Notes: a model not told the origin generated them from the sequence alone. A stretch of DNA of 64,000 nt from an uncultured Clostridium sp. (GCA_947571115.1 CANOWW010000003.1:81293-145292), one strand, 5' to 3'; shown: positions 4,902 through 23,354, numbered from the stretch's first letter. Numbers and translations: made by a program.

Positions 4902-5054
4902 TTATGAAGCATGATCTTTATGGCTATACTTTAATTTGGTTGCCATACCACCTCTAATATGCCTTTCTGCTTTATTTTCATCCAAAACTTTTCTGACTTC
5001 CATCGCCAATGTATAATTAATATCTAGCAAACGTTGACTTACATCTTTATGTAC
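4902..5054 (-). pseudogene. spoIIID: spoIIID 3' segment (split gene, not a decayed gene)
   Basis: The minus frame encodes VHKDVSQRLLDINYTLAMEVRKVLDENKAERHIRGGMATKLKYSHKDHAS*. This matches the conserved C-terminal two thirds of SpoIIID (STVHKD...NKAERHIRGG). There is no start codon or RBS, and the frame abuts the recombinase gene end. Confidence 0.85.
5039..5054. other. attL-type junction core
   Basis: TTACATCTTTATGTAC here versus TTACATCCATATGTAC at 23143-23158. Both are imperfect inverted half-sites around a central dinucleotide, as expected for serine recombinase sites. Confidence 0.65.
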
Positions 5055-6597
5055 CGACGTTACTATTCAGAACGGTCGGTGGATTGATTCCAATTTCGTT
5101 TAATAATTTCAGTCTTACTTCAATATTGGCTTCGCTGTCGACTTCAATCACATCAATAATTGTTTTTAGCATGGCATTTGTGATTGTTTCATTATTCAAG
5201 ATATCGTCTACTGTGCTAATCGTTCTCGACAACTCTTTTTCCAAAACATCTTTTTCTTTGATTTCAGAGGTGATTAACTTCAATTCTCTTTCCAACCTTG
5301 AGATATCTTCATTCAATGGATTGGTATATTTCTTTAATTCCTGAATATTAATCACTTCATTTTGAAACATCTCCATATACTTTTGTTTCTTTACCGTTAT
5401 TTTTTCGATTTCTTGAAGTAGACTTTTCTCACTTCTCTCATTATTTTCCCTTAATTTGGTGATTTTATCAAACTCTTTTTGCACAGATTTCATAAATTCC
5501 TTCTTATTCGAAATAATGCTTTTCAAATATTCTTTGATAGCATTTAGCAATTCTTCTTCATCAATCACGGTCGTATTTGGACACGAACTAACACCCATCG
5601 AATTTCTGCCGCTGCAAACCCAGCGAATATATTCTTTGCCATTTTCTGTGTATTTTCTTTTGGTTCGTCGATACGAATATCCGCAATGTTTGCAATAAAT
5701 GAGTGTGCTAAAAACATAACTTGTCTTTTCTCGTTTGCAATTTAACTTGAATTCTGTTGACCTTTGTGCCAAAATTTCTTGGGCTTTGTTGAATAATTCG
5801 TCAGAAATAATTCGCATTTCTGGCTTTTCTACAACAATCCATTCTTCTTCTGGCAAATCTTTTCTGGTTCCTGTAATGAAATCCGTTACTTCCGATTTTT
5901 TGTTGGTTACTCTGCCAGTATAAATTGGATTTTTCAACATTCTTACAATCGAAGTTTGTACCCATCTTGATTTTGTTTTTTTAGTTCGTATGCCTCGTTC
6001 GTTTAATTCCCAAGCAATTTTTGTGGTTCCCATTCCTTTATAAACATAGTTTTCAAAGATTTCTTTGACAATTTTGGCTTCTTCTTCATTGATTTTTAGT
6101 GTATATCTCTCATCTGGCATTTTGTCATAACCAAAAACAATGTTGGGAACTCGTCCTTTTTGAGCCGTAATGTCTTTTCCAAATTTCACCCTTTTGGACA
6201 TATTGGCACTTTCTTGTTGAGCCATCGCCCCTAAAATCGTCAAAATAAATTCAGAGCCACCTTCCATAATTTCGCCATTATTTAGAAAATCCACTTCGAT
6301 ACCATAAGACTTCAATTCTCGAATGCTTTGCAATAAATCAACTGTATTTCTGGCAAAACGACTGACATCTTTGACAACTACTTTTTCAAAATTTTTTGCT
6401 TTGGCATCTTGCATCATTTGCTGGAATTGTTTTCTGTGTTTGATTTGTTTGCCAGATATTCCTTCGTCTGCATATAATTTGTATAAGTCATATCCATTTT
6501 TCTTTGTAAATTCATTGAAGAATTCGATTTGTTTTTCAAGTGAGTCGATTTGTGCTTCTTTTTCGGTTGATACTCTACAATAGGCTGCAATTTTCAT
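5047..6597 (-). CDS. Large serine recombinase
   Basis: 516 aa. N-terminal resolvase catalytic motif (MKIAAYCRVSTEKEAQ, VVVKDVSRFARN), a recombinase domain, a Zn-ribbon (CKHCGYSY...CSGRNSMGVSSC) and a coiled-coil tail. Its stop codon lies inside the att core. Confidence 0.9.
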   Translation of the reverse strand: MKIAAYCRVSTEKEAQIDSLEKQIEFFNEFTKKNGYDLYKLYADEGISGKQIKHRKQFQQMMQDAKAKNFEKVVVKDVSRFARNTVDLLQSIRELKSYGIEVDFLNNGEIMEGGSEFILTILGAMAQQESANMSKRVKFGKDITAQKGRVPNIVFGYDKMPDERYTLKINEEEAKIVKEIFENYVYKGMGTTKIAWELNERGIRTKKTKSRWVQTSIVRMLKNPIYTGRVTNKKSEVTDFITGTRKDLPEEEWIVVEKPEMRIISDELFNKAQEILAQRSTEFKLNCKREKTSYVFSTLIYCKHCGYSYRRTKRKYTENGKEYIRWVCSGRNSMGVSSCPNTTVIDEEELLNAIKEYLKSIISNKKEFMKSVQKEFDKITKLRENNERSEKSLLQEIEKITVKKQKYMEMFQNEVINIQELKKYTNPLNEDISRLERELKLITSEIKEKDVLEKELSRTISTVDDILNNETITNAMLKTIIDVIEVDSEANIEVRLKLLNEIGINPPTVLNSNVGT

Positions 6598-6641
6598 AGT
6601 TTATTTTCTCCTTTTCTGTTATTTCTATTTCGTTCCGTTAC

Positions 6642-6670
6642 ATTGTAGCATATCTATTTCAGAAATGCAA
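6642..6670 (-). promoter_or_regulatory. Candidate promoter of the recombinase gene
   Basis: Minus strand reads TTGCAT, a 17-nt spacer, then TACAAT (with TGC just upstream). It sits about 45 nt before the RBS AAGGAG and the ATG at 6597. Confidence 0.45.
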
Positions 6671-6791
6671 GAAAAAAGATATTAAAATTATCTTAATAAT
6701 TCATTATTGTGGAAAATCCAATAGCAAAAGCACTCCAATACTTATGGAATGCTCTCATATTTTAGATATAAAATATCACTCAACTTATTTA

Positions 6792-7256
6792 TTATTTTTT
6801 CAAAAAAACATTAAGTATGCTTTTTATCTTATTCAAAATTCTATTAAATATATTTTCTTCTTTGTACTCAATAATTTGAACATTTTCAGTTTGTTGCTCT
6901 TTTTGAACTTGTTCTTCAACCTTATTACTTTTAAACAAATTCTCATAGCTATATTTCTCTTGATATTTCTGTTCGTTTTGATTTAATATCTCATCATATT
7001 CCTTCTTTTCATCTAACGTACAAAAATAATTTCTATAAACAATCGCCATTAAATTTATTGTATCTTCTCTTATATTCTGGTTTTCTAATGGAATATTCAT
7101 ATCAATCGTTACTTGATATTCTTCATCTTTATTTTCTTCTATGTAATTCCAAAAGCTTTGTGGAATTTTCTTTTGTAAATTTTCATCGGTATTTTTTAAT
7201 ATAAAATCAATTTCACTTAAAGCCCTGGCAAATTCCTTTTCTGTTATCTTTTGCAT
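6792..7256 (-). CDS. Hypothetical acidic protein
   Basis: 154-aa ORF immediately downstream of the HD-domain gene on the same strand. No motif recognised. Confidence 0.45.
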   Translation of the reverse strand: MQKITEKEFARALSEIDFILKNTDENLQKKIPQSFWNYIEENKDEEYQVTIDMNIPLENQNIREDTINLMAIVYRNYFCTLDEKKEYDEILNQNEQKYQEKYSYENLFKSNKVEEQVQKEQQTENVQIIEYKEENIFNRILNKIKSILNVFLKK

Positions 7257-7279
7257 ATATTATTAACCCTTTTCTATTA

Positions 7280-9334
7280 TTAATCTCTTTCAAAAACTTC
7301 TACTGTATCAATTCCATTAACTCGTGCCATTTGTCTATCCTTACTATTTTTTATTTTGGTTGCCATATCTTGCAAACTAGCAATTGTTCTGTCTCCAATA
7401 ATTTTCTTCCAACTATCTAATCCAAAGACTGCAACTCTTTGTGATTCTTCCATCTGTTTGACATTTGGCCTAGTATAATCTGGAATACTTTTGGTTGCTG
7501 TTCTCATTTGAATTTTGTCATCTGCTGTTTGTTCTTCTATTAATTGTTTCTTCTGCTGTTCTTGTTGGTCTGTATTTAAACTATTAAATGTTTGCTCAAA
7601 TTCAGAACTTCGATCTAAAACCTCAAACGATTCACTATACGCAATTGCTTCTTCTGGATAATTTCCAACTTCCTTTGCTTTTGCTCTTGCCTTCATCACC
7701 TTAGAAAAGTCTCTGTTTTTTATAGCTTCTAAAAAATCTCTTGTTTCTCTTTGCTGGTCTACATCATCATTTACTAACTTTTGTAAGCGATAGGCTGCAT
7801 AAGCCTTTGCTTTTAGCCCTTCTTTTTGTTGTTCTGTATATTCAACACCTTCTTGTTCTAGTGGCATACATTCTTTAAATATTTGATATGTCTTTTCAAA
7901 TTTTTCCTTTTCCTTGTTATCCGATGATAAATATTCTTTTTCATATTTATCAAAAATAGCTTCTAAGACTTTCTTGTTTTCAATTTCATCATTTCCAAGA
8001 ACTCTTGTAGATTTATAAAGAAGTTGATTATAGATAAGTTCATCTTGTATTTCATATAAAACCGCAAGTGTAGGACAACTTTTCCTTAGACTATTTGTTT
8101 CTTGATTTAGGCTATCTTGATAATGAGCAAAGCTTTTTCCAATAACACTATTTTCTAAATAATCTTTAAAAGCCTCATCAAATTTTTCTTGCTCTCCTAG
8201 ATAGATTGTAGAAAACTTATTTTTTTCATATTCCATCAATGCCCAAGGAATTTCTTCTATTGTTTCAAACTCTTTATTCTTCTTTCCTCTTAATCTACAT
8301 TCTGCTTCTCTTAAAAGTTTTAAATTATCAGGTATAGAAACAAGTGGTGATTCAATTTCCCCATTTTCTTTTACATTATTTACAGCAACTTCTTTTAATA
8401 CTTGTGCTTGTATTCTTGATAGTTTGTTTGGATCTCCTGAGACTAAATCATCAATTACCTTTTCATAATTAAAACTAGGATTATTTTTTGCATAATAGGA
8501 AGCTAATGTTTGACTAGAAGATACAATCTTTTCTGTTGGCAAATCTTCTGATTTCTCGATTCCATTTGTATTTTCTACACCGATTGTTGTTGTTACTCCA
8601 TCTTTCAATAATTTTAGCATAATGTCTTTTGATAAGATTTTTCCTTCAATTCCGTCTGCTCTATCAACTTGGGCTAAACCTTGTATGTCAGATGGCATAA
8701 AAGAAAGAGTATCTGCTAATCTACCACAAATTAATGGTAAATCTTCTCTGGCGCGTTCTGATGATTGGTAAGATAAGTATTTCCCGTGATTTTGTACTCC
8801 TTCAATTATATAATCTTTAAGTCCAGAGTTTATAAATTTGTCTTTAACTTCTTGTGGTCGTCTTTGTAATGCTTTACTATTACAGAATTTTTCAAATAAT
8901 TCTGCAAATACAACTCCACCATATTGATCATGTCCAAATCTGTAACCATTACCAATTTTTTCTCCACACACAACTTCACTTGCGTGTGCCATTGGAAGAT
9001 GTCCTAAATCATGAGATAATCCAACTATTTCAGAAATTAAGATTTCTTTTTGTTCTTCTTTGCCTAATAATTTTACATTTTTTTCTGTCAGTTCCTTACC
9101 ATTTTTTCTTTCTAATAGATAAGTAGCAAGTTTTCTTGCATTTGTAGCAACTTGTATCGTATGTAACCCTCTATTTGTTGTATTATCATTATCATCTCTT
9201 AAAACTTCATCTCTCATTTGGGTACATCTAAATAATTTTTGATATTCTCTTGAATCTAAAATAAAGTTTTTTAAATCCCTTAGCTGTCTACTACCTATCG
9301 ATTTTAATATTTCTTCTAGTTTTTCTTTTGACAT
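7280..9334 (-). CDS. HD-domain dNTP triphosphohydrolase-like protein (dGTPase family) with a long C-terminal extension
   Basis: 684 aa. Motifs NRGLHTIQVATNARKLA and SHDLGHLPMAHASE correspond to the dGTPase R..H..V and HD.GH.PFGH signatures. Confidence 0.55.
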   Translation of the reverse strand: MSKEKLEEILKSIGSRQLRDLKNFILDSREYQKLFRCTQMRDEVLRDDNDNTTNRGLHTIQVATNARKLATYLLERKNGKELTEKNVKLLGKEEQKEILISEIVGLSHDLGHLPMAHASEVVCGEKIGNGYRFGHDQYGGVVFAELFEKFCNSKALQRRPQEVKDKFINSGLKDYIIEGVQNHGKYLSYQSSERAREDLPLICGRLADTLSFMPSDIQGLAQVDRADGIEGKILSKDIMLKLLKDGVTTTIGVENTNGIEKSEDLPTEKIVSSSQTLASYYAKNNPSFNYEKVIDDLVSGDPNKLSRIQAQVLKEVAVNNVKENGEIESPLVSIPDNLKLLREAECRLRGKKNKEFETIEEIPWALMEYEKNKFSTIYLGEQEKFDEAFKDYLENSVIGKSFAHYQDSLNQETNSLRKSCPTLAVLYEIQDELIYNQLLYKSTRVLGNDEIENKKVLEAIFDKYEKEYLSSDNKEKEKFEKTYQIFKECMPLEQEGVEYTEQQKEGLKAKAYAAYRLQKLVNDDVDQQRETRDFLEAIKNRDFSKVMKARAKAKEVGNYPEEAIAYSESFEVLDRSSEFEQTFNSLNTDQQEQQKKQLIEEQTADDKIQMRTATKSIPDYTRPNVKQMEESQRVAVFGLDSWKKIIGDRTIASLQDMATKIKNSKDRQMARVNGIDTVEVFERD

Positions 9335-9364
9335 TTCAAATTAATCCTTCATCTTTTGAATTTT

Positions 9365-10201
9365 CTATTTTTCAATATCTTGTGTCTGTTCTACATATAA
9401 CTCATGAATTCTTGATTCTCTCATAGATGCTACATAATATGCCACTATTGTCTGTTTCTCATATCCCTCTAATGCTTTTCTAAAATCTTCAGGTATTTCG
9501 TCAGATTTTTTCATATAATATCTATAAGCATTTTCTAATTCACTCTTTCTTATTGGATTTCTTCCTACTCTGTCCTTATCAGATTTCTTTTCTCTTAGAA
9601 TATCTAAAATCTCTGGATCATCAGTTGAAATAGTTCCTGTTTCTTCTGTTCCACCATAAATACCAGATAAAGCAGCCGTATGCATATCTCTAAATTCATC
9701 TCTATCTTTATATTTATTTGCACCATCATATATTTCAGTAGCCAATTTTGCTGCTCTTGTTTCTTCTCCAATATCTTCTTTACCTTCTAAGGCGTCTTCA
9801 ATTCCTTGATAGATTCTTTCTATTCTTTTTCCTTTTAGTCCGCTTAATAGAACTCTTGTTAAAGCAATGCCTAGTCCACTTTTTTTATAATTAGGAATTT
9901 TAGATTTTAAAAATTCTTCTCCCATTCCTTCAAAAATTGGCTTTCCAAGTTCCATTCCAATAGCAATTCCTTTTGTAACTTCTTCATCTCCACCAATACA
10001 TTCTATTATACTGGCTGCTGACTGTGCTTTTAACATTGCTTCTATTTGTCTATTTTCTCCGTATATGTTTATTTTTCCAGCCAAATCTTGAATTACTTTT
10101 GAATTAGTAAATCTACCATTTAATATGGTATCTTGATATAATTTTTTCGTTAAATCATCTTCAGCTCTTTCTTCACTCATTTTTATCTCCTTTAATTCCA
10201 A
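9365..10201 (-). CDS. Hypothetical protein, operon partner of the HD-domain gene
   Basis: 278-aa ORF ending 30 nt upstream of the HD gene on the same strand. The C-terminal IVAYYVASMRESRIHELY vaguely recalls the dGTPase C-terminal DYIAGMTD helix. Confidence 0.45.
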   Translation of the reverse strand: MELKEIKMSEERAEDDLTKKLYQDTILNGRFTNSKVIQDLAGKINIYGENRQIEAMLKAQSAASIIECIGGDEEVTKGIAIGMELGKPIFEGMGEEFLKSKIPNYKKSGLGIALTRVLLSGLKGKRIERIYQGIEDALEGKEDIGEETRAAKLATEIYDGANKYKDRDEFRDMHTAALSGIYGGTEETGTISTDDPEILDILREKKSDKDRVGRNPIRKSELENAYRYYMKKSDEIPEDFRKALEGYEKQTIVAYYVASMRESRIHELYVEQTQDIEK

Positions 10202-10277
10202 TTATATTATACTATTTCATTTTGATAAAAATCAACACTCTATCGTTCGACCTTTTTCGACAAACATTTCTCAGCAA

Positions 10278-11684
10278 TTATCCATCAACACTAATATATT
10301 TCTGATTTTTACTCTTCGGCTTATCTTGTATTGTCATTTTCATTTTTCCACTATCTACTAATGGTTTCAAATAATTTCTTTTAAATCGATCCACACTTTT
10401 ATACCCACAATATTCCGCAATTTCTTTTGCAGTTCTTTCTTCTGTGCAAAATTGTAGTATTTTTTCTTCAACACTATCATACGTCTTTTCATACGTCTTT
10501 TCATACGTCTTTTTTTCTTCATTTTTATTATTTTGCGTTAAATCATATAACTCTTCATCCGTCTTTCTATAAAAAACAACGCTAAATCCATTTTTCTTTA
10601 TTTCAAATTTTACTTTTACATTTTCTTTTTGACACTCATCATAAATTCTTTTAAAGCCAGATCCCCATTTTTCAATATCTTTTGATAAATATAAAGTATT
10701 TGCAATCAACGGATTTCGTGGCATCGAGCCTTCCTTTCCTTCAATAAAATCTTCTGGAGTATATCCTTCTGGAAATTCTCCTGGATTAAAGATTTCAATT
10801 CTATCTTTATAAATTGCAATTTCATTGCTTTTCGGATTCTTAAAATCTCTGTGTATAATCGAATTGATTAAAGCCTCTCTAATCGCTTCGATTGGTATTT
10901 CTGGAATTTCTACTCGCTCCATACTTCCACTTTTAAAATTAACAGGCCATTTTATATTTTTTCTAATATAGCCTTCTCCAGCTTCAATTAATTCAAAAAT
11001 ATTTCCAAAAACTTGGTCAATATCTAGAAAAGTCAATTTTGTTTCTGTTGCAAAAATTGCCATTTGCATTTCTAGTTTTGCTTCCTCAGCAAACAAAATA
11101 TGTCCTGCATTTAATAACTCACTATTTTTATTAACTAGAGCTAATTTTTTTAAGATTTCTTCTTTGTTTGTATATGGAAAATTGATTCTTTTTGCTTCTC
11201 TACCTTTTTCAATAAAACCTTTTAGCAATTCTTCATCAATATTTTGCATTGTATAATCAGAAACTTTATTTTCCCATTTACCGACTTCGTTTTCATCTTT
11301 TAAAATCATGTTCCTGATTTCCTTCATAGAAAGTTGTCTATCTTCATCTCCAACTCTCATATAAGCTCGTCCAAATGCCAAATAAGGGATATCATCTCCT
11401 TCAAATTCAACTAATATACAGTCTTTATCGTTTACCTTAATTTTATTCACAACTGGATATATTTTCGGCTCTATATTCTCCGATATTGCCTTTGAAACAT
11501 CTCGAATTGTCTTTGTTGATACTTCTTGTCCAATAATTTCACCATTGTCTTTTATTCCAAAATACAATTTTCCGTTCTGATGCTTATTCAATATCGAAAC
11601 AATTGAAATAATTCCCTCTTTTAGTTCGCCAGTCGTTTTCTTGAATTCAATTACTTCGTTTTCTAAAAAATTGATATTTGCCAT
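10278..11684 (-). CDS. AlbA_2 (Schlafen-like) domain protein with HATPase_c_4-like region and C-terminal wHTH
   Basis: 468 aa. The N-terminus NFLENEVIEFKKTTGELKEGIISIVSILNKHQNGKLYFGIKDNGEIIG is typical of AlbA_2 / divergent AAA DNA-binding domains. The C-terminus has an HTH-like TAKEIAEYCGYKSVDRFKRNYLKPL. Confidence 0.55.
   Translation of the reverse strand: MANINFLENEVIEFKKTTGELKEGIISIVSILNKHQNGKLYFGIKDNGEIIGQEVSTKTIRDVSKAISENIEPKIYPVVNKIKVNDKDCILVEFEGDDIPYLAFGRAYMRVGDEDRQLSMKEIRNMILKDENEVGKWENKVSDYTMQNIDEELLKGFIEKGREAKRINFPYTNKEEILKKLALVNKNSELLNAGHILFAEEAKLEMQMAIFATETKLTFLDIDQVFGNIFELIEAGEGYIRKNIKWPVNFKSGSMERVEIPEIPIEAIREALINSIIHRDFKNPKSNEIAIYKDRIEIFNPGEFPEGYTPEDFIEGKEGSMPRNPLIANTLYLSKDIEKWGSGFKRIYDECQKENVKVKFEIKKNGFSVVFYRKTDEELYDLTQNNKNEEKKTYEKTYEKTYDSVEEKILQFCTEERTAKEIAEYCGYKSVDRFKRNYLKPLVDSGKMKMTIQDKPKSKNQKYISVDG
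10478..10513. repeat. 3 x 12-nt perfect tandem repeat inside the AlbA_2 gene
   Basis: catacgtctttt occurs three times and encodes the in-frame peptide (K)TYEKTYEKTYE. Confidence 0.9.
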
Positions 11685-11760
11685 AAATTCGTCTCCTATT
11701 AAACCTATATTTTATATTGTAACATATTTTATAAAATATTTGTAGTGTCTTTCTAAAATT

Positions 11761-11934
11761 TTATAATTCCCATTCCTCTTCATCTTCTGTTTCAATTTCT
11801 TTTCTATTTTTATAATCGAAAATAACTTTTTCATCATACTCAGCTAGATTATAAGCCAATACACTTGCCATAGCTTGTACAATTTGCTCTTCTGTATTTG
11901 GATTGATAAACTTTATATTCAGTTTCTTTTTCAT
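11761..11934 (-). CDS. Small acidic hypothetical protein (57 aa), below the ORF-track cut-off
   Basis: My translation is MKKKLNIKFINPNTEEQIVQAMASVLAYNLAEYDEKVIFDYKNRKEIETEDEEEWEL*. It fits neatly between flanking genes on the same strand. Confidence 0.3.
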   Translation of the reverse strand: MKKKLNIKFINPNTEEQIVQAMASVLAYNLAEYDEKVIFDYKNRKEIETEDEEEWEL

Positions 11935-11993
11935 ATTCTCTTCGCCTTTCCTTTAATTTTATTTTTTAATTTTGAAAATATTACTTAAAAAAA

Positions 11994-12491
11994 CTAATTA
12001 TCGTATAAGGCTTCCCATTCCTCAGTTGTATGATAATCTTCCATAAATGCAAATTTAGTTTGATGAAATGTATCTCTTCTTTCATTCTTTTTATTTTTTA
12101 TTTCTTTAGTAGTGGTTACTGGTTGGTTATTGGATGGTTGATTTCTGGTTACTAACTGGTTAGCTTCATTCCCATCACCTTGCATCTCGTCATAATTTAC
12201 AATTGTTACAATCGTATATTTGTTGGTTGCTTCTACAACAATATCGTTAGTCGATTCTAACTTTTTCAAAGCTGTCCTTACTTTTTGAACTCCCATTTTT
12301 AATTCTTCTGCCAAATGCTCTCTACTAGTTACAATCTGACCTCTTTTAATTGTCATTTCTTCCCATTCTTTGTCCTTAAAATTAGCTTTCACTAATAAAT
12401 GTAAATAAACATCCTTTACATTTTGATCTTGATACCATTGCCAATCAAAAATTCCTCTCGGCAATTTTACCCATCCTTTACTTATATCCAT
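11994..12491 (-). CDS. Phage/plasmid replication-organiser-like wHTH protein
   Basis: 165 aa. GWVKLPRGIFDWQWYQDQNVKDVYLHLLVKANF...RGQIVTSREHLAEELKMGVQKVRTALKKLE resembles the N-terminal wHTH of phage replisome organiser / DnaD-like proteins. Confidence 0.4.
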   Translation of the reverse strand: MDISKGWVKLPRGIFDWQWYQDQNVKDVYLHLLVKANFKDKEWEEMTIKRGQIVTSREHLAEELKMGVQKVRTALKKLESTNDIVVEATNKYTIVTIVNYDEMQGDGNEANQLVTRNQPSNNQPVTTTKEIKNKKNERRDTFHQTKFAFMEDYHTTEEWEALYDN

Positions 12492-12648
12492 AAAACTTTC
12501 TCCCTTCTTAAATAAAAATTTTTAAGCAATAGAAAAAAGCCTAATATAAATTAGACTTTTCCTCGGGAAAATTTTATGTGTTTAAATTTTTAAAATCAAG
12601 GTAAGAAAAATCCAACACTTTTCCATCCCTTCTTTATCAAAAGTAAAT

Positions 12649-12685
12649 AACCTCACATTATAAATATAAAATGTGAGGTTTTTAC
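12649..12685 (-). terminator. Hairpin terminator downstream of the PadR-like gene
   Basis: 10-bp perfect stem aacctcacat / atgtgaggtt with T-rich flanks on both strands. Confidence 0.5.
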
Positions 12686-12712
12686 TAACATTCTATTGAT
12701 TTTTACTATCCA

Positions 12713-13231: not shown

Positions 13232-13274
13232 ACAAAATCCTTTCTAAGTACTAATATTTATTAACTATGAGAGT

Positions 13275-14658: not shown

Positions 14659-14678
14659 GCCTTTTAATTCTATAAAAG

Positions 14679-14794: not shown

Positions 14795-15844
14795 TCAACT
14801 ATTTTTATTTTCTAACGCATTTAATATTGTTCTTTTTATCATTTTTTTATTTTTAAAATCATCAAAGAAAGGTTCTAATTCAAATTCATCAAATAAAATA
14901 CTAATTTTCTTTGATAAGTTGCTGTTAGTAAAGATTTCTTCTATTTTCTCTTTTGTTAAATATTCATTATAAGATTTTTCTTTCATCCTTTTGGCTTGAG
15001 ACTCGTTAATTTTTGCATTCTTAAATTTGATGTAATTAGCAATTATATTTTGTTCTTCTTTTCTCAAAAATGATAAATGTTCTGCAATTTTCAAATTAAT
15101 TATTCCATTATCTATTGCCTCTTGCAAGTCCTGATTCAAATAATTAATTCTCAAATACCTTTGAATATTTCCATTAGACACGCTATTTTCTTTCATAATC
15201 GCTTTTCTGATATTCAAATCTCTTTGATTATCATTCATAATATCCTTATCAACTTTTTCTTTTAATTTCTCATCTTTCAAAGCCTGCTTTCTCATTAAGT
15301 AAGCTTTTGCCCTCTCTGTTGGTTTTATTATTGCTCTAGATGTAAGATTCGTATCTACTAAATATAGTTTTGCTTCATCATCTGTTTTTTCTCTCACATA
15401 ACAAGGAAATTCGGTTAATCCAATATTTCTTCCACATTTTCTTCTCCTGTGCCCTGACAAAATCTGATATTTCCCTTGATATGGTCTTACAATAATTGGC
15501 TCAATAATTCCATTTACTCTGATTGAATCTTCTAACTCCTTATTATCCTCTTCATTATCCGTACGAAATGGCTGATTTTCATAATCAATTAGTTCCTCAT
15601 CTTTCAAAAAAAGTAAATTGTGTTGATTTGCATTTTCTGTGGCTATCTCATTATCTGCATAAATCTTGTCTATATCACTTTCTATTAAAATCTGATTGTC
15701 CATCATTTCCAATGCTTCTTCTTTTGTTTTTCCTTCTCTTTTCCATTGTTTTACAATTTCCAATACCTCATCCAACTTTGCCTCTCTAATAATCCTACTT
15801 ATGTGTGGATTTTCCTTGTAAATTTTTTCATCTTCATTTCCCAT
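14795..15844 (-). CDS. ParB/Srx-like nuclease-domain protein
   Basis: 349 aa. ParB N-terminal domain motif GIIEPIIVRPYQGKYQILSGHRRRKCG. Confidence 0.7.
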   Translation of the reverse strand: MGNEDEKIYKENPHISRIIREAKLDEVLEIVKQWKREGKTKEEALEMMDNQILIESDIDKIYADNEIATENANQHNLLFLKDEELIDYENQPFRTDNEEDNKELEDSIRVNGIIEPIIVRPYQGKYQILSGHRRRKCGRNIGLTEFPCYVREKTDDEAKLYLVDTNLTSRAIIKPTERAKAYLMRKQALKDEKLKEKVDKDIMNDNQRDLNIRKAIMKENSVSNGNIQRYLRINYLNQDLQEAIDNGIINLKIAEHLSFLRKEEQNIIANYIKFKNAKINESQAKRMKEKSYNEYLTKEKIEEIFTNSNLSKKISILFDEFELEPFFDDFKNKKMIKRTILNALENKNS

Positions 15845-16013
15845 AAAAATAACTCCTTTTCAATAAATTTACAATTTTCATTGTTGGAGCTATTGTATTC
15901 TTTTTCATTTTTTAAGTAAAAGTAAGAAGAATCCTAAACCCTATATTTTTACTTTATCAAAAAAATTGGAGTAACTTGTAAATAAGTTGTTCATTCTTCA
16001 TTTGAGTTATTCT

Positions 16014-16067
16014 AAACAGCTCGCTGTTTATGTGTCTTATCACAAATGTAAGTTGTGCTTATCCTGC
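16014..16067 (-). repeat. Inverted-repeat unit B flanking the ParB-like gene
   Basis: The minus strand reads GCAGGATAAGCAC, then a different hairpin (cacaa..ttgtg), then AAACAGCGAGCTGTTT. The 13-nt end matches unit A perfectly. Confidence 0.8.
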
Positions 16068-16113
16068 GTTTAATCAATTTCAAACTTCGCAAGAATTTTC
16101 TTATACAAAAATA

Positions 16114-17565
16114 TTAATAAAATAAGTTTTCTTTCATTTCAATAACTTTTTTAGTTATTTTTTCGAATTTGTATACAGAAGCAAAGATTACTTGATGCTC
16201 ACCAAAATCTCTTTCCAAAATTTTTAACATTGCTGTAGAATTATCATCAGTTAACTCACTTGTTCTTGGAGAGTCAATTATCAATGGTAATATTAATCCA
16301 TATTTTCTCTTTATTTCAAGCACATAAGCTATTTTAAAAGTAAAAGCCATTTGTGTTAAAATTCTACCAGTCTTTCCCTTTAGCTGATTAGTTAGTACAA
16401 AATTTTGATTATCTTTAATATACTTGTCAAACTCTAATTCTTTAGCATATTTTTCAATAGTCTCATATATAGATACTAAATACTTATTGTTATTTGAAAG
16501 AACAGCATGTAACTCTTCTACTAATTTTTGTTTTCTTCTAGTCAACTGCCCTATTATTTTATCAATTTGCTTTTCATTTATGTTGACAGTTTGCAACATT
16601 TCATCAACTTCATCTGCAACAGTTTTTACATTAAATAAAAGATTTCGATTATTTATCTCATTTTCAATTTTACTTATTTCATTATTTATTTTAGCTAAAG
16701 TTATTTCTAATTCTCTTTTTCTTGTTTCATAAAAAATTTGATTTTCATTATAATTCAAAATATTACTTTTAGATAATTTTATCGAATTCTCTTCAGAAAT
16801 TTTTACATAAATATCTAATCTTTCAAGATATTCAACTATTTTTTTATTATCCAATAAAATTATATTTACATCCTTAATATCCTTTTTGACTTCAACTGCT
16901 CTCATTTTTAACAAGTTAATTTTGCTATATAATTCATTATCCTGATTTTTTGTGTAAGATGTTGTTTCTTCAATCATATTTTCACTTTTGTATTCGGCTA
17001 TAGTTTTTAATGTTCTATATTTTCTTATCTCATCTTCAATCTTTTTGATTTCATCGTTAATTGATGTAACATCCTTTTCTGATAATGCTGAAATAAAATC
17101 TTCTATATTAAATCTATTTTTTCCTATTATAATTCCTCTATTTAAAAGAGTCCAGCCTTTTTCTTGATCAATATAGAAAATTGCTAATAAATTATTTAAT
17201 ATCATAATATCATTTATATCAAATATTTCAGCATGTAATTCATTTATCTGTTCTGGCATTACATATGTTATTTTTTCATCTTTAATACAAAAATATATTA
17301 TATCTCCATGCCTTTCAATTTTATATACTTGTGAGTTTTTAGTATATTCTATTAATATATAAAAATCATCAAATGTTTTAATTCCGTCCGTTGCTGGTAT
17401 ATTATAACCAAATCCATATAATATGGCTCTTAATAATGTTGTCTTTCCTTTTGAATTATCTTTACTGTATATCAAATTAATTTTATCATCAAATATAAAT
17501 TCTCTTTTTGCATCTTTCCATTGAATAATAACTTTTTTAATTTTCATATTGACTAGCCCTTTCAA
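16114..17565 (-). CDS. SMC/ABC-like coiled-coil ATPase, LmuB-like
   Basis: 483 aa. N-terminal P-loop INLIYSKDNSKGKTTLLRAIL, a long coiled-coil middle and a C-terminal Walker-B-like LPLIIDSPRTSEL. Its start overlaps the upstream gene by 29 nt. Confidence 0.5.
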   Translation of the reverse strand: MKGLVNMKIKKVIIQWKDAKREFIFDDKINLIYSKDNSKGKTTLLRAILYGFGYNIPATDGIKTFDDFYILIEYTKNSQVYKIERHGDIIYFCIKDEKITYVMPEQINELHAEIFDINDIMILNNLLAIFYIDQEKGWTLLNRGIIIGKNRFNIEDFISALSEKDVTSINDEIKKIEDEIRKYRTLKTIAEYKSENMIEETTSYTKNQDNELYSKINLLKMRAVEVKKDIKDVNIILLDNKKIVEYLERLDIYVKISEENSIKLSKSNILNYNENQIFYETRKRELEITLAKINNEISKIENEINNRNLLFNVKTVADEVDEMLQTVNINEKQIDKIIGQLTRRKQKLVEELHAVLSNNNKYLVSIYETIEKYAKELEFDKYIKDNQNFVLTNQLKGKTGRILTQMAFTFKIAYVLEIKRKYGLILPLIIDSPRTSELTDDNSTAMLKILERDFGEHQVIFASVYKFEKITKKVIEMKENLFY

Positions 17566-18562
17566 ACATTTGCATTATATTTCTTTTTCTTATGAATATC
17601 CTTTTTGCTATAATTTTTGAACAAGCTTTTTCTATAGTTTCCATATTATCATTTTTATTATTTTCAAAAACTATATCATATATCTCATTTTCATATTGAA
17701 TAATAAAAGTATTACTTTTTATATTTTGTATATTGTTTTTAACTTTTTCTATTAAATTGCTTATCCTATTATATGTTTTAAAATCAGCTTCTTTATAATT
17801 AATTATTTTGTCATATTTATCTAATGCCTCAAAAAAATCTTCTTCCTCTATTTCCATGTTATCATCATACTTTATTGAGTTGCTATCACCTAACTTTAGT
17901 ATTAAAAGTCTCCATAAAACATCTTCTCTTTTTATTTTTAGTTTCAGATTATTTTGAGTTGAATTATGATAAGCCTCCGATTCTAGCATTTCTAAAAATC
18001 TATTCTTATACTGTAATAAATCTGAACTAATAAAGGTTAAAAAGTCATCAAGTTTTGCAATTATATATTTTTGTCTAGTATCTTTGTCTTCACTAAAAAA
18101 AGGTACTTTGGCAATTACTAATTTATCTTTGTCGATATTATTTTTTAACTTTTTAAGTTGATCATCTATTTTTTCTTTTGATGCTTCTGATAGCTCATTA
18201 TATCTAAGAAAAGATAGTAATTCAAATTCATTCGTTCCAGAATTCAATGGATTAGGTTCTAAATTGCTTATATATATTAGACTTTCAGAATCATTATCAT
18301 TTACATCTGATAATGATTCTAAAGCCTCTTTTAACTTTGTTGAATATGAACTTGTATCTCCATTATTAACATTCTGCTTTGATTTTGCTTGAGCATAAAT
18401 CTTCCTATTGTTATTTAATAATATTTCAATATCCTCTTTTTCTCCTTCTATTTTCATCTCTTCGAATTTTCCAAAATATTTAATCATTAAATATATAGCC
18501 ATATTAATTTGAAATTGCCAACCAAAGGCACTTGCACTAGCATTTCTATTCTTATTATTCAT
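17537..18562 (-). CDS. Cap4/DUF4297-type nuclease-domain protein, LmuA-like
   Basis: 341 aa. The N-terminus GWQFQINMAIYLMIKYF...MKIEGEKEDIEILLNNNRKIYAQAKSK fits the PD-(D/E)xK pattern of Cap4-type dsDNA endonuclease domains. Confidence 0.45.
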   Translation of the reverse strand: MNNKNRNASASAFGWQFQINMAIYLMIKYFGKFEEMKIEGEKEDIEILLNNNRKIYAQAKSKQNVNNGDTSSYSTKLKEALESLSDVNDNDSESLIYISNLEPNPLNSGTNEFELLSFLRYNELSEASKEKIDDQLKKLKNNIDKDKLVIAKVPFFSEDKDTRQKYIIAKLDDFLTFISSDLLQYKNRFLEMLESEAYHNSTQNNLKLKIKREDVLWRLLILKLGDSNSIKYDDNMEIEEEDFFEALDKYDKIINYKEADFKTYNRISNLIEKVKNNIQNIKSNTFIIQYENEIYDIVFENNKNDNMETIEKACSKIIAKRIFIRKRNIMQMFERASQYEN

Positions 18563-18728
18563 TATCTTTCCTCTTTTACTATCAAAAATTTAATTTTAAC
18601 AATTAATGTATATTTTCCAAAATTTCTACAATCAAACTATTCTAATTTACTAGCACTATATCATATTTTCATCAAAAAATAAAGTATTTCAAGCATATTT
18701 TTGCTCAAAATACTCTTTATTCTACCTT

Positions 18729-18796
18729 ATCACCAACCCCAACCTCACAACCGGATTCCTCTCTGCCAAGAAAATCTTCCTAATCTCAATACTTTC
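18729..18796. repeat. Copy 1 of a 68-bp direct repeat of the element's right-end sequence
   Basis: 62 of 68 nt are identical to 23037-23104. The minus strand encodes ...ESIEIRKIFLAERNPVVRLGLVIR*. Confidence 0.85.
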
Positions 18797-18841
18797 CAAC
18801 AATATTCTATTTTCTTTGCAATCTTTACATTCTTTCATTTA

Positions 18842-19243
18842 CTAGCATTCCTTCTTAAAATTTACCCATTCGCCCCAATATTCTCTTGTCATAAATCGAT
18901 TAATTTGTTCCCAATGCGGTAAATCTATCATTAGAATAACTTTATTAAAGATTTCTTCATTATATTTCGAATTACAAATAAAATCATCTTTCATCCCCTG
19001 TGGCACAGTAAAATTTCCAACATACAACAAGTCTAAAATAGCTCTTATATGGTTAGCAACATTATATTTTTCAGTATGCTCAGGAATGGCCTTATTTTTC
19101 TCAATTCCATAATCGCCCCATAATGAATTATCCGATTCTAATATATGTGGCTTTTCCCATTGAATTCCACTTGCATGCCAATCTCCACAAGTTTCTAAAC
19201 TACATGGAATATTTAAAGCATGAATTAATGATATATATTTCAT
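18842..19243 (-). CDS. Hypothetical protein
   Basis: Likely start at MKYISL, with RBS AGGAG 6 nt upstream. 133 aa, Trp/His-rich, no family recognised. Confidence 0.45.
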   Translation of the reverse strand: MKYISLIHALNIPCSLETCGDWHASGIQWEKPHILESDNSLWGDYGIEKNKAIPEHTEKYNVANHIRAILDLLYVGNFTVPQGMKDDFICNSKYNEEIFNKVILMIDLPHWEQINRFMTREYWGEWVNFKKEC

Positions 19244-19388
19244 TTTTTCTCCTATCTTATATTTAAAATAACATAAATACACTAATTTTACAAATATTGA
19301 TTTTCTAATAATGGTTTATTTGAAAATTTTATTTCAATGCATATAATCACGTGGACAAAATCAGATAGATTTCGTCTACGATTCACTT

Positions 19389-20688
19389 TCAAATCAAAAA
19401 TGTCGCATATAACGGTACAGACTTTATATTATTCTCAAACCCAAAATTCTTGGTTGAAATTCTAATCCCATATTTCGGTTTATTCTCTCTCATATATATA
19501 TTTAAACTAGTTGATTTTACATTACTTCCACTTTTTACCTCCACTGGTATAATTCCATCCTCATTATATAGGATAAAATCCACTTCAGCATTTCTTCCAT
19601 ATGTCCAATAATATAAGGATGTATCTTTCGATATAAATTCCTGTGCAATATAATTTTCCGTAATTGCCCCTTTAAATGCAAACGGTCTTTCTAACATAAT
19701 ATCTGGATATTTGATTTCTGAAATTGATGTTAATAATCCTACATCACTTAAATACAATTTAAACATATTCTCATCTACATAAACTTTTAGCGGTATTTCA
19801 GGCCTTTTTATTTTGTAACTTGCTAAAACCATTCCACTTGATACTAGCCATTCAATCGGTGTTTCATATTTCCTTTTTCTACCTTCTTCATCAATTAAAT
19901 GATATCGAAATGTTTTTTTATCTTTCGCCAATTGACTTGGTATATTTTTATATACCTTTTCAATCTTTACAGACTCAATATTACTTTTTACATATTTCTT
20001 CATATCTGCAATATACATCTCAATAATATTGGATGTTATCTGCGAATCATATTTTAAGATATCCATATCATTTTCTATAAAATTATTGACTGACTCTGGC
20101 ATCCCTCCCACGCATAAATATTGCTTATACAAGGTAAGTGCTTGCTCATGCGCAAAAGAAGGCATTGCCTCCATATTAGAATAACACTCTTTTATTTTCT
20201 CTAATAACATTTCTTTTCCAGTAGCCATTAAAAACTCTTCAAAATTCATTGGATACATATATTCCATTCTTATTTTTCCAACCGGAAATGAACTATTAAA
20301 TCGATTTATTTTTACTCCCAACAAACTACCAGCACATACAATTTTATATGGTCTTACCGATTCATTAAAATACTTAAGCGAAACAATAAAATTTTCACTT
20401 ACCTGAACTTCATCAAAAAATAATAACGTTTTGTCTAAATCTATCTTTTTACCAATATACAATTCAAGTTCTTCCAATATTTTTTCTTCATCAATCGTTT
20501 TTTCAAAAATATCTCTTATTTCTTTATCTTTTTCCAAATTAAAATATAGATAATCTTCAAAATTTTCTCTTCCAAACTTATCAATTGTATAAGTTTTACC
20601 AATTTGTCTTACTCCGAATTACCATTAATGGCTTTTGCATTCCAGATTCTTTCCAATCTAATAATTTCTTTTCAAATAATCGAATCAT
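19389..20688 (-). CDS. AAA ATPase with DUF4143-type C-terminus (COG1373-like); intact only with a +1 shift at the in-frame CGG 20614-20616, otherwise a pseudogene
   Basis: The upstream frame reads MIRLFEKKLLDWKESGMQKPLMVI-CGG. The +1 frame continues GVRQIGKTYTIDKFGRENFEDYLYFNLEKDKE... The paralogue at 54372-55694 has KPLILKGVRQSGKTWLL at the same place. Confidence 0.65.
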
Positions 20689-20883
20689 TCCAATTTCCCC
20701 CTATTTATTCTATTATTATCATAAAACAAAAAAATAGTCAACATTTTTGCCACTTTTTGTATTGTTTTTTGGAGTGATTTTGCCACTTTTTGCATATATC
20801 TTTCAGAAGTATTTGCCATAATTAGCTTCAGTATAACCGAATTTCTTTTTAAATTAAAATAGCATTAAATTCATTTATAGAAC

Positions 20884-21840
20884 CTAATGCTTTATTTTTA
20901 TATTATCTAATGTTCTTCTTAATCCTCGATATTTACCATTTACTGATATATCTGCAAAATTAGTTAAACCTATTATACTATTTTTGCTATGTAAATCTAT
21001 TTCCTTTTTTCTCACAAATTTAGTTTGACTTTTTATTTTGGATTTTATCTTATTAGGTATTACTAATTTATTGTTTGGAGAAATTACAAAACCTGTTACT
21101 TTCTTATATTCATTCACCCCATATCGTATAGTCTTTCCTTTACTTAAATTCTGTTTATGTTTTCTTATAATATTTTTTATTTCACTTTCTTCTTTTTGCG
21201 TAATATATCTATTTTCCGATGATACTGTTATATCATCTACATATATTGTACATTGTAGCTTATGTTTGTTAGTATATTCTATAATCTCATCAAACATATC
21301 TATATTCGCCAGATATGATAAAATTTGACTGGTTGGTGTTCCTGATGGCAAATGGTTAGTATTTTTTATTTTTTTCAATTTTAAAAATTCATATACTCCG
21401 TCTTCTATTTCTACATTTTTTTGTTCATAATTAACTGTAACTATATCTGTACAAATTGATGCAACATCCGAGCTCATTTTTAGTTTATTTTTAAAAAATT
21501 CATATAGTCTATTTCTGTGTGTGTTTGGAAAAAATTTACTCATATCTAACTTTAACATATATTTACAGTCAATATGATATATGGCATTACCAAATGCAGA
21601 CCTACCTTTAATTCCTGAAAATACATACTCTGGAAATTTTAATTGATATAATTTATTCAATATAATTCTTTGTATTTTTTTCAATTCTTCACTAGGCTTT
21701 TCTAATAATCTCTTTCCATCCTTTACACAAACCTTATATTTGTATAATACATCATTTATTTTTGCTTCATCTACATATAACAATGCATATAAATCTCTTT
21801 TTCTTTTGATTTTATATAATTCGCACTCTTTATAATTCAT
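20884..21840 (-). CDS. Retron-type reverse transcriptase
   Basis: 318 aa. RT motifs LPSGTPTSQILSYLANIDM and YVDDITVS, plus the retron-typical VTG motif (YKKVTGFVIS) near the C-terminus. Confidence 0.8.
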   Translation of the reverse strand: MNYKECELYKIKRKRDLYALLYVDEAKINDVLYKYKVCVKDGKRLLEKPSEELKKIQRIILNKLYQLKFPEYVFSGIKGRSAFGNAIYHIDCKYMLKLDMSKFFPNTHRNRLYEFFKNKLKMSSDVASICTDIVTVNYEQKNVEIEDGVYEFLKLKKIKNTNHLPSGTPTSQILSYLANIDMFDEIIEYTNKHKLQCTIYVDDITVSSENRYITQKEESEIKNIIRKHKQNLSKGKTIRYGVNEYKKVTGFVISPNNKLVIPNKIKSKIKSQTKFVRKKEIDLHSKNSIIGLTNFADISVNGKYRGLRRTLDNIKIKH

Positions 21841-21900
21841 TTTCTCTTTTCCTTTTATAAATAGACTTTTTCAAATCTATTTATAAAAAGAAAAGTTTAA

Positions 21901-22095
21901 TTAGTTTTTAGTGAAAAATTTAATAGTAAATTCTATACTGTCTTTCGTCTTTTTGATAATAAGTTTAGCTTTTACTATAATTCCAAAACCTATAATAAAC
22001 TTAGCTAAATTCATTACAAATTCTTCACTATAACCACAAGCTTTCCCAACTAACATTACTAAAACTACAAAAACAAATTGTTTTGGAATCTTCAT
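21901..22095 (-). CDS. Small two-helix membrane protein between the candidate retron RNA and the RT
   Basis: 64 aa. Hydrophobic segments FVFVVLVMLVG and FIIGFGIIV. Strong RBS AAGGAGG 10 nt upstream of the ATG. Confidence 0.5.
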   Translation of the reverse strand: MKIPKQFVFVVLVMLVGKACGYSEEFVMNLAKFIIGFGIIVKAKLIIKKTKDSIEFTIKFFTKN

Positions 22096-22145
22096 AATCG
22101 TTACACCTCCTTTTTTATAGATTAGAACTTATTTAATATAAAATA

Positions 22146-22450
22146 AGCGCCCCTCTATTTTCTAACCTTAGAAAGTGTACAGCTTGTTTGTGGTTCCTAA
22201 TTAAATTTCTGGGAGAGCCCCTCACAGGACAAGATATAAATAATCATCACCTTATATAGATTATTATTTATATGTCTTTTATTGCTTATATACTTTATAG
22301 TCCTGATAATGCTCTCTTTTGTGTTTAAGTCTATCTATAATATATTAATCTATAGCTAGTCCAAACAAAAATATGCGGAAAATACTTTTACAAGTATTTT
22401 CTTCACTATTTCTAGCCAAAATGGGGCTAAATTTCGAGCCTCGTTGAGAA
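22146..22450 (-). ncRNA. Candidate retron msr/msd non-coding RNA
   Basis: It lies downstream of a consensus promoter and upstream of the RT. A 10-bp hairpin sits at 22378-22401. A long composite stem spans 22211-22316 (gggagagc/gctctc, caggac/gtcctg, AT-rich inner stem). A possible a1/a2 pairing is GCCCCAUUUU (22418-22427) with AAAAUAGAGGGGC (22149-22161), with GG directly 3' of a1. Confidence 0.4.
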
Positions 22451-22457
22451 TAATTAC

Positions 22458-22486
22458 ATTATATATTGCATAATTTAAAATGTCAA
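22458..22486 (-). promoter_or_regulatory. Consensus sigma-A promoter driving the retron region
   Basis: Minus strand reads TTGACA, a 17-nt spacer, then TATAAT, both hexamers perfect. Confidence 0.65.
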
Positions 22487-23036
22487 TATTCAATAAATTA
22501 AATTTTTATTATTTTTTAATCATTACTATTCTTATAGTAATAGATTTTAATTTTGATTCAAAAAATCAAAAATTATATTCGTAGGCAACCGTTTCTCAAA
22601 ATGAACAATAAATTTCATTTTGAGATTTACAAAAAGCACAATACTTTTTTTCAATCACTTTAGCCCCAATAGACACCGTCGGTCATTCGCCTCGTTTCAT
22701 AGATAGTCTAATAAGTATCTCATTGATACTATAATTGCTAATTACTTATATCGTAATCTTTGTTCATCCTTGTCCAAACTTTTTACAATTATAAATCCAC
22801 ATCCAAGTTTTGCCTCCGAATACTCTTTTATTATTGTGAGCCTATGTTCAAAAATCTCACTTACGCACTTTACATTAATAGACTGTTAACGTTTATACGG
22901 ATTGATTTTATAGCATCGGCTCATCACACCTATCACTTTTATAGAGTTTGTGGCATTTCTCTTTTCAATAAAAAAAGAAGCTTGTATTTTATTCTTACAA
23001 ACTTCTTTCTCATTATCCTATTCAATTATTTATCTA

Positions 23037-23104
23037 ATCACCAACCCAAACCTCACAACCGGATTCTTCTCCGCCAAGAAAACTTTCTTAATCTCAATAC
23101 TTTC
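23037..23104. repeat. Copy 2 of the 68-bp direct repeat (at the true right end of the element)
   Basis: See 18729-18796. Here it is fused in frame to the spoIIID 5' segment (…ESIEIKKVFLAEKNPVVRFGLVIR*). Confidence 0.85.
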
Positions 23105-23142
23105 TGGAAATATTTGACTTTCTCTCCAACCGTTCTTTTGTG

Positions 23143-23158
23143 TTACATCCATATGTAC
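23143..23158. other. attR-type junction core
   Basis: TTACATCCATATGTAC. To its left, CCAACCGTTCT (23126-23136) is the inverted partner of AGAACGGTCGG (5069-5079). Together they would form a symmetric attP after excision. Confidence 0.65.
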
Positions 23159-23354
23159 TGTACTTTTACTGATTCCAAATCTCTTTGCTGCTCCTCGTAC
23201 AGTATCCTTTGTATCTATTATATATTGAGCAAGTTTAATTGCTCTTTCTTCAATTGACATTCCCTTCATTCTGATAACCCCCAAACAAATACATTTGCTT
23301 AATTGTATTCGTTTAAAAGTTGTCTTAGAACTATCTCTTTTTCACTTCAACACT

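Follow-up and report, generated by a model that had tools for sequence, protein, structure and literature searches.

How could a sporulation gene be used by a cell in which a mobile element lies in the middle of it, and what would time its repair? This question is raised by a 64,000-nucleotide stretch of DNA from an uncultured Clostridium sp. (GCA_947571115.1, CANOWW010000003.1:81293-145292; the whole stretch is hereafter called the window), in which an 18.1-kb element interrupts spoIIID, a gene that is expressed in the mother cell (PMC517825, PMC3789822). We consider it probable that the integrated element is excised in the mother cell by its own recombinase acting with a small, sigma-E-driven directionality factor. 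Positions below are counted from the first base of the window, and features lie on its minus strand unless stated otherwise.

An element within spoIIID

The two parts of the gene translate as MKGMSIEERAIKLAQYIIDTKDTVRGAAKRFGISKSTVH (23269..23153) and VHKDVSQRLLDINYTLAMEVRKVLDENKAERHIRGGMATKLKYSHKDHAS* (5054..4902). Joining 23269..23159 to 5054..4902 gives 264 nt, in frame, encoding 87 amino acids (aa) that match the Pfam SpoIIID profile (PF12116) at 2e-37 over positions 4-81 of 82 and pass the NCBIfam equivalog TIGR02844 as SpoIIID (121.5 bits; cutoff, 111.5 bits). The 5' fragment (23159..23269) supplies codons 1-37 with the helix-turn-helix (HTH), and the 3' fragment (4902..5054) supplies codons 38-87 and the stop, followed by an intrinsic terminator with a 12-bp stem and then a T run (4867..4893). 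The insertion site falls in codons 38-40, in the DNA for the HTH recognition helix (STVH|KD), and hence within the coding sequence of a mother-cell sporulation gene, as is characteristic of skin-like elements. In the integrated state, the open reading frame (ORF) of the 5' fragment continues to 23030 as a 79-aa fusion, a protein that is also present in three public contigs. A preliminary description of this DNA had reported the split and its coordinates and had proposed that the joined frame would align with SpoIIID from end to end; our translations and profile matches agree on both counts. It had also raised the possibility of a second intact copy, and no second SpoIIID-like sequence occurs within the 64-kb window. 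Among ten large ORFs elsewhere in the window, NCBIfam searches recognized no other sporulation gene, and the window therefore gives no additional indication of whether its host can sporulate.

Upstream of the 5' fragment lies the host spoIIID promoter, AGTTCTAAG-N13-GAATACAAT (23302..23332). It is the best-scoring site of the whole window under a matrix derived from 33 spoIIID promoters of orthologs, and its motif is kept in loci L001-L037. By analogy with Bacillus subtilis and Clostridioides difficile (PMC3789822, PMC5025042), it would be a mother-cell promoter of the sigma-E type. Directly after the 79-aa fusion ORF, we observed a hairpin, AGAAGTTTGTA...TACAAGCTTCT followed by T7 (22970-23006, minus strand), which has too few G-C pairs and falls outside the output of the terminator scan. 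Transcription from the spoIIID promoter probably ends at this hairpin, ahead of the cargo.

The empty site and the crossover

A protein identical to the joined 87-aa sequence is encoded in public assemblies. In one of these, L081 (Logan SRR12338470, 21 kb), which shares 99.1-99.85% identity with both window flanks, spoIIID is uninterrupted and has the same neighbors as in the window (Maf, CmpB, SpoU/TrmL, and a 190-aa ORF upstream; MurL and MurD downstream). The L081 flanks align to window positions 24481..23143 and 5068..1, with a 33-nt overlap on L081. Precise excision in silico regenerates the natural intact allele P0001 (L081-L086). Five more contigs, from strains that have diverged by 10-12% at the nucleotide level, contain the empty site and encode a 100%-identical SpoIIID protein. 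Compared with the six intact alleles, the split gene differs by 4-13 nucleotide changes, all of them synonymous, and by no amino acid change. The GTDB species representatives, with 80-85% SpoIIID identity, do not share flanks with the window, and the empty site was therefore taken from the exact-protein look-up. The downstream junction recurs in two independent assemblies, L087 and L088, in both of which the element is 100% identical; the recurrent junction and the occurrence of the 79-aa fusion in three contigs argue that the insertion is not an assembly artifact. Samples carrying the element include SRR33321732 and ERZ14864012.

The two cores, TTACATCTTTATGTAC (5039-5054) and TTACATCCATATGTAC (23143-23158), are 18,104 bp apart, and the intervening element with one core copy (5055..23158; 18,104 bp) is absent from L081. 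The L081 attB (...AGTAAAAGTACAGTACATAAAGATGTAAGTCAACG...) is identical to the upstream junction as far as GTACATA and, starting with this heptamer, to the downstream one, which places the crossover inside this 7-bp core (5048-5054 and 23152-23158). In gene orientation, the upstream junction, attL, spans 23126..23158 (core, 23152-23158; element arm to 23126), and the downstream junction, attR, spans 5048..5079 (core, 5048-5054; element arm to 5079). The outer arms, CCAACCGTTCT (23126-23136) and AGAACGGTCGG (5069-5079), are 11 nt each and inverted. The predicted junction sequences are ...AGTACAGTACATAAAGATGTAAGTC... for attB and ...AACGTCGGTACATATGGATGTAACAC... for attP, and the predicted attP is symmetric about the CA of GTA-CA-TA, with 15/24 flanking positions complementary. 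Conservation of these arms extends to related elements: the upstream arm GTAACA...AGAACGGT is kept in 26 distinct family junctions, and the element-side arms read ACCGTTACGAAAAGTAAC...|GTACAYA and GTACAYA...GTAACAYTCNAGAACGGTA.

A large serine recombinase of 516 aa (5047..6597) adjoins the downstream junction and is oriented like the 3' fragment, the layout known from skin. It contains the Resolvase (PF00239; 2.1e-34), Recombinase (PF07508; 6.2e-26), and Zn_ribbon_recom (PF13408; 2.6e-13) domains of Pfam, all above cutoff, carries a YCRVST motif at N-terminal residues 6-11, and matches a PHROG integrase at 7e-120. Its closest full-length solved structure is SprA (YokA; E = 4e-13). The preliminary description had anticipated an empty attB in a related genome, a crossover in the shared TATGTAC/GTACATA block, a symmetric attP formed from the outer arms, and a 516-aa large serine recombinase at the junction; the natural attB of an ~99% identical strain, with an intact gene at the same locus, supplies the first and pins down the second, and the arm symmetry and recombinase domains bear out the others.

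The recombinase stop codon lies within the crossover core. In the window (5047-5054) and throughout the family loci L087-L168, the reading frame of the recombinase invariably extends 8 nt or more beyond the point where the core starts, which means that the last residues are encoded by host spoIIID DNA; total length ranges from 516 to 582 aa. In the predicted attP form, the recombinase would instead acquire a conserved tail, ...HRSNIPER in relatives and 19 additional aa (YGCNTKERLERKSNISRKY) in the window copy.

Several further differences among strains were seen near the locus. We considered L087 as an independent integration, based on its 100% identical element and a 94% identical flank, and rejected this interpretation: the adjacent 3.2 kb of flank show 100% identity and divergence starts only past them, as expected for the same lineage. 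Between window positions 1-1900 and L087 positions 8600-10781, identity falls abruptly from 100% to ~80% beyond murD, in a region with SSB and an MFS transporter, which points to a recombination boundary or a variable region at a distance of ~3.2 kb from the element. In L081, a gene for a 203-aa NUDIX protein separates the CmpB-like genes from trmL (8201-8789); the window lacks this gene (~24461-24481), a second indel polymorphism near the spoIIID locus. In L001 (a GTDB metagenome-assembled genome, CAKOVK010000001, from Hadza gut), positions 8022-8150 hold the N-terminal part of spoIIID (aa 1-43) together with its promoter and a homologous arm of the element. After this N-fragment come ~1.85 kb without a recombinase and then a slightly diverged second promoter and a complete spoIIID at 10001-10264 (region 7930-10264), which looks like a decayed element beside a restored gene.

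A family of elements that use one spoIIID site

The preliminary description presented a single skin-like element. The skin-like split structure stands, as described above, but the element is not one of a kind; it is a member of a common family of mobilizable elements that are not phage-like. Relatives of the recombinase form more than 120 protein clusters at an identity of at least 88%, and we examined a set of eighty metagenomic loci, mostly from human gut, with recombinases 80-99% identical to the window copy. In all 78 loci with at least 130 bp beyond the recombinase, a SpoIIID C-fragment starting from the same codon follows directly, and ~35 loci also include the N-terminal fragment, 3.8-11.5 kb upstream. 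The 79 C-fragment loci, window included, represent 55 distinct sequences in 23 clusters at 90% identity, indicating that many host lineages are involved. Complete elements number 31 and range in size from 3.8 to 18.1 kb; joining their flanks in silico yields an intact SpoIIID in 28 cases, and in one more, L125, the N fragment runs past the end of the locus.

Only two genes are common to all 31 complete elements according to ORF clustering, namely, the recombinase and an acidic ORF of 54-61 aa. A MobV relaxase (Mob_Pre; 4.7e-45) is encoded by 25/31, an HTH protein resembling sigma-70 region 4 by 22/31, and TnpV by 10/31. Based on the MobV relaxase and TnpV, these relatives are integrative mobilizable elements similar to Tn4451. 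No relaxase was found in the window element, which on this measure does not itself qualify as an integrative mobilizable element. Judged by its gene content, the window copy is a relaxase-less derivative that has gained ~12 kb of defense genes, partly between the small ORF and the recombinase. Taken at face value, the loci point to a widespread, nonphage family whose members all use one spoIIID site.

The spoIIID-targeting clade is deep: the recombinase of MT838016.1 (L169) is just 47% identical to that of the window and is likewise followed by a SpoIIID C-fragment, at 3626-3760. This 6.4-kb sequence from human feces was deposited as "Bacteriophage sp." Rather than a phage genome, it represents a piece of bacterial chromosome in which an element is integrated. 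The recombinases P0075 and P0074, which are ~90% identical, are followed by GTACATATGGGAGTAA and GTACATACGGATGTGG, respectively, without a spoIIID fragment (L170, 11637-11680; L171, ~1850-1880), and the L170 neighborhood includes valS ... ffh-rpsP-rimM-trmD. We considered whether these odd tails reflect circular forms and rejected the idea, as the adjoining DNA is non-spoIIID and attB-like. These positions are apparently secondary insertion sites resembling attB.

A small acidic ORF and two kinds of promoter

The second universal gene encodes, in the window, a 57-aa acidic protein (MKKKLNIKFINPNTEEQIVQAMASVLAYNLAE...; 11761..11934). It is present in 31/31 complete elements, is intact in 66 loci, and in most relatives lies ~150-2000 bp upstream of the recombinase. 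Database proteins related to it fall into 814 clusters, none of them named. Its constant co-occurrence with the recombinase makes it a candidate recombination directionality factor.

Phylogenetic footprinting identified a promoter for this ORF at 11956..11984, consisting of GTAATAT (ATA at 11981..11979), N15, and AATAAAAT (11963..11956). The family consensus is AGTAATATTTTT...AATAGTATT. The 39 distinct upstream regions come from at least three unrelated contexts and are alignable exactly from AGTAATATTTTT-N-AATAGTATT on; conservation therefore begins exactly at the -35 element, where upstream synteny stops. The promoter is not sigma-A-like, with an ATA -35 and an AATAnnAT -10 that are 16 nt apart (ATA-N16-AATAGTAT). 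Host spoIIID promoters of the clade share the layout ATA-N16-AATA(C/G)(A/T)AT (TCATAA or GTTCTAA, then GAATACAAT), and three of them use GAATAGTAT. Sigma-E promoters of C. difficile combine an ATA -35 with a -10 of the CATAnnAT type (PMC3789822). Based on these likenesses, we infer that the small-ORF promoter is sigma-E dependent.

The recombinase has a promoter of a different kind. It lies at 6631..6670, with TTGCAT (6670..6665), N17 including TG, and TACAAT (6647..6642), followed by GTAACGGAACG (6641..6631). Fifty-one distinct sequences upstream of the recombinase share a terminator, TTGC(T/A)T-N17-TGcTA(A/C)AAT, and TGTAACAGAACG, a pattern that identifies an extended -10 promoter of the sigma-A type. 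By analogy, this promoter and the mother-cell-type promoter of the small ORF would form the same pair as in the C. difficile skin, one tier higher in the cascade.

Directly after the recombinase -10 element lies TGTAAC(A/G)GAACG (6631-6641, minus strand), kept in the 51 family promoters. It agrees with 8/9 positions of the C. difficile SpoIIID box KRTAACARK and is similar to the GTAAC...AGAACGG motifs found in the att arms. Either repression by SpoIIID or autoregulation by the recombinase may act through this sequence, and TGTAACGGAACG at the same promoter may be a SpoIIID-repression sequence.

How excision might be timed

These features suggest a cycle in which the recombinase would be made in all cells from its sigma-A-type promoter and, acting alone, would only integrate, joining attP and attB at GTACATA. 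The small protein would serve as the directionality factor and turn the recombinase toward excision. With its sigma-E-type promoter, it would be made in the mother cell only, after asymmetric division. There, the two proteins would recombine both junctions, release the element as a circle, and leave spoIIID precisely joined and under its own sigma-E promoter, and the forespore chromosome would retain the element. SpoIIID would be unable to aid its own reconstitution, so the trigger of excision must be sigma-E alone; a small ORF with a mother-cell-type promoter would answer how excision is timed. By analogy with known systems, the elements probably cut themselves out during sporulation and thereby restore spoIIID.

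Several observations weigh against this interpretation. That the uncultured host can sporulate is read solely from the conserved spoIIID. Pattern searches found no attP in IMG/VR, the attP-form recombinase C terminus occurs in 0/120 recombinase homologs, and no sample among the contigs retrieved contained both occupied and empty alleles. The small ORF has no relatives in Pfam, PHROGs, or PDB and no relative of known function; an AlphaFold2 model made with 30 homologs consists of a single helix with a predicted local distance difference test score of 60. We rejected the spoIIID-promoter matrix as proof of sigma-E control of the small ORF because it is too weak for that purpose: the small-ORF promoter scores within the top 0.1% of window positions, a level reached equally by ~120 positions. 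The in silico joins of L158 and L099 look degenerate, with frameshifts. TnpX, the recombinase of Tn4451-type elements, excises without a helper, so that a directionality factor would not be strictly required. Finally, the relaxase of the relatives implies a need for vegetative excision prior to transfer, in which case sigma-E would not be the sole trigger family-wide.

The best-surviving alternative, although an unlikely one, is a plain insertional knock-out, in which an ordinary integrative mobilizable element finds a convenient attB in the conserved DNA that encodes STVHKD, its carriers sporulate abnormally or not at all, and excision serves horizontal transfer only. The lack of detected excision products and the commonness of empty alleles in the species would fit, as would the MobV relaxase of 25/31 relatives and the TnpV of some, which recall Tn4451. 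A knock-out does not readily account for the fixation of one codon of a mother-cell gene as the target in at least 23 host lineages, however, or for the 28/31 split genes that are still intact. The recombinase adjoins the 3' fragment, as in skin elements, and the conserved promoter of the small ORF is non-sigma-A-like and resembles that of host spoIIID. Moreover, the experimentally tested elements of the same layout all excise in sporulation (PMC5025042, PMC4191935, PMC5595907).

We give slightly less credence still to the idea that excision, by the recombinase with or without the small protein, is stochastic or growth-phase dependent and yields a mixed population, with the small ORF as a regulator and not a directionality factor. 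The helper-free action of TnpX-type enzymes, the weak statistics of the sigma-E promoter, and the presence/absence polymorphism between strains that have diverged by just 1% are all consistent with such a process, for which yin in yabG of Clostridium botulinum offers a precedent (PMC10747680). Vegetative loss from the germ line would then be expected, yet recombinase variants with 95-99% identity (~50 protein clusters) occur in many contigs, and the recombinase and small-ORF promoters are of different types. A dead relic or an assembly artifact is already contradicted by the present data and is very improbable, since the recombinase, the small ORF, and both junctions are intact and the same junctions occur in independent assemblies with an identical element (L087 and L088), even though some related loci are degenerate (the L001 relic and the frameshifted L158 and L099).

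Relation to known intervening elements

The preliminary description regarded spoIIID as a new target gene, and this is not the case. According to Galperin et al. (2022; bioRxiv 10.1101/2022.02.25.481979), skin-like elements split cotJC in Laceyella sacchari as well as spoIIID in Ruminiclostridium cellulolyticum. For R. cellulolyticum H10 (CP001348, region 3,645,999-3,711,011), the main text and Table S3 of that paper describe a 64.7-kb spoIIID element whose recombinase, Ccel_3111 (511 aa), lies beside the 5' fragment on the opposite strand. The H10 element resembles that of the window in its target, in a similar break (N fragment of 126 nt, ~42 codons), and in a recombinase of ~511 aa; it differs in the position and strand of the recombinase and is 3.6 times larger. 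The published record consists of one sentence and one table row, without an analysis of a family, a directionality factor, or promoters. A full-text literature search found spoIIID named as a target in none of the papers on skin, SPbeta, gin, and yin. We found no account, in the literature searched, of the family or how prevalent it is in gut metagenomes, nor of its nonphage, mobilizable character, its universal small ORF, its two promoters, or the defense cargo. The family-level picture thus appears to be new, whereas the split spoIIID itself was already known.

The closest experimental parallel is the C. difficile skin, in which the recombinase CD1231 is sigma-A driven and a 72-aa acidic directionality factor, CD1234, is sigma-E driven (PMC5025042). 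Like the window element, it has a large serine recombinase at the edge beside the 3' fragment with a sigma-A-type promoter, a small acidic orphan protein with a mother-cell-type promoter, and a mother-cell regulatory gene as the target; excision in the window would be precise and in frame. In contrast, its target is sigK, one tier below spoIIID, and CD1234 needs both sigma-E and SpoIIID, which would be impossible in the window. The same dependence on SpoIIID holds for spoIVCA of B. subtilis, whereas the trigger proposed here is sigma-E alone. There is no detectable similarity between the small proteins of the two systems, and, unlike the C. difficile skin, the window element has mobilizable (MobV) relatives and carries defense genes; the window system is read from sequence alone.

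Other systems share parts of this design. The gin element in gerE of Bacillus cereus ATCC 10987 is likewise a nonprophage element with serine recombinases that interrupts the gene of a small HTH mother-cell regulator (PMC5595907), but it has three recombinase genes and another target, and neither relaxase nor defense cargo has been described for it. SPbeta (SprA/SprB) in spsM of B. subtilis parallels our proposal in pairing a large serine recombinase with a small directionality factor under a sporulation promoter, such that a mother-cell gene is restored, and SprA-SprB structures are available (9dxd and 9dxh); SPbeta, however, is an active 134-kb prophage, whereas the window element has no phage genes and no IMG/VR relative. 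The mobilizable transposons Tn4451 and Tn4453 (TnpX, TnpZ, and TnpV) share with the family relatives a large serine recombinase, a Mob_Pre relaxase (25/31), and TnpV (10/31), the latter two of which are missing from the window copy. Tn4451 inserts at many GA-containing sites, and TnpX is sufficient, whereas the spoIIID family is confined to one codon and has a universal extra small ORF.

Cargo of the window element

On the side of the upstream junction, the cargo includes a type VI retron-like module (20884..22486), recognized from PADLOC and Pfam matches, a promoter, and RNA folding. It includes a retron-like reverse transcriptase (20884..21840; PADLOC RT_VI, 1.4e-61; Pfam RVT_1) and an adjoining 64-aa ORF (21901..22095), and a promoter search found a perfect TTGACA-17-TATAAT promoter (22486..22458). 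A structured noncoding stretch of 326 nt (22130-22455; fold z-score, -2.2) is probably the retron noncoding RNA, for which it is a candidate; Rfam matched no family in the whole window, this region included. PADLOC also identified PDC-S01 (19389..20537; 2.8e-128), an AbiEi-like gene (18842..19282; 6.9e-57), PDC-M46A (17537..18562; 4.2e-61), and PDC-M46B (16114..17565; 8.8e-135).

A group of regulatory and replication remnants follows (11994..15844; Pfam and PHROGs). Profile matches in this group revealed a ParB_N protein (14795..15844), two HTH_3 proteins on the plus strand (13794..14075 and 14245..14607), and a PadR-like protein (12713..13231); a truncated DnaD-like protein (11994..12491) was recognized with PHROGs, and a 103-aa ORF is listed among the remnants. 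Between the small ORF and the recombinase, further cargo (6792..11684; Pfam and PADLOC) includes a Schlafen/AlbA_2 protein with HATPase_c_4 (10278..11684; Pfam), a 684-aa dGTPase-like ORF (7280..9334; a weak PADLOC match, 4.3e-06), and ORFs of 278 aa and 154 aa. Going by these matches, most of the cargo consists of anti-phage defense genes or candidates for such genes. We considered and rejected a prophage origin: PHROGs matched just the integrase and the DnaD-like fragment among the tested ORFs, and the other ORFs are defense or regulatory genes according to Pfam and PADLOC. A search of IMG/VR returned no relative of the element, and the best phage-database match to the recombinase has 47% identity.

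Implications for gut Clostridia

Sporulation governs the between-host transmission of many gut Clostridia. More tentatively than for the mechanism itself, and as a possibility somewhat short of even, we suggest that a widespread clade of mobilizable elements in human-gut Clostridia makes SpoIIID, a master regulator of the mother cell, conditional on an excision that a sigma-E-driven orphan directionality factor would trigger right after asymmetric division. Such an arrangement would constitute a DNA-rearrangement checkpoint above that of skin and sigK, the need to sporulate would retain the element and its variable defense cargo in the germ line, and the conserved TGTAACAGAACG, which resembles a SpoIIID box and lies at the recombinase promoter, may let restored SpoIIID shut the recombinase off. 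Defense islands would then be carried by an element that a developmental need may force the cell to keep. The family also supplies a serine integrase of high site specificity, with many naturally occurring attB, attL, and attR pairs, and a candidate for a new directionality factor. Should SpoIIID be gated by a common mobile element, carriage of that element could alter the timing or frequency of spore formation by commensals, and its presence or absence, which varies between strains that differ by only 1%, would introduce a hidden variable into transmission. The family-level finding makes such a sporulation checkpoint in uncultured gut Clostridia directly testable.

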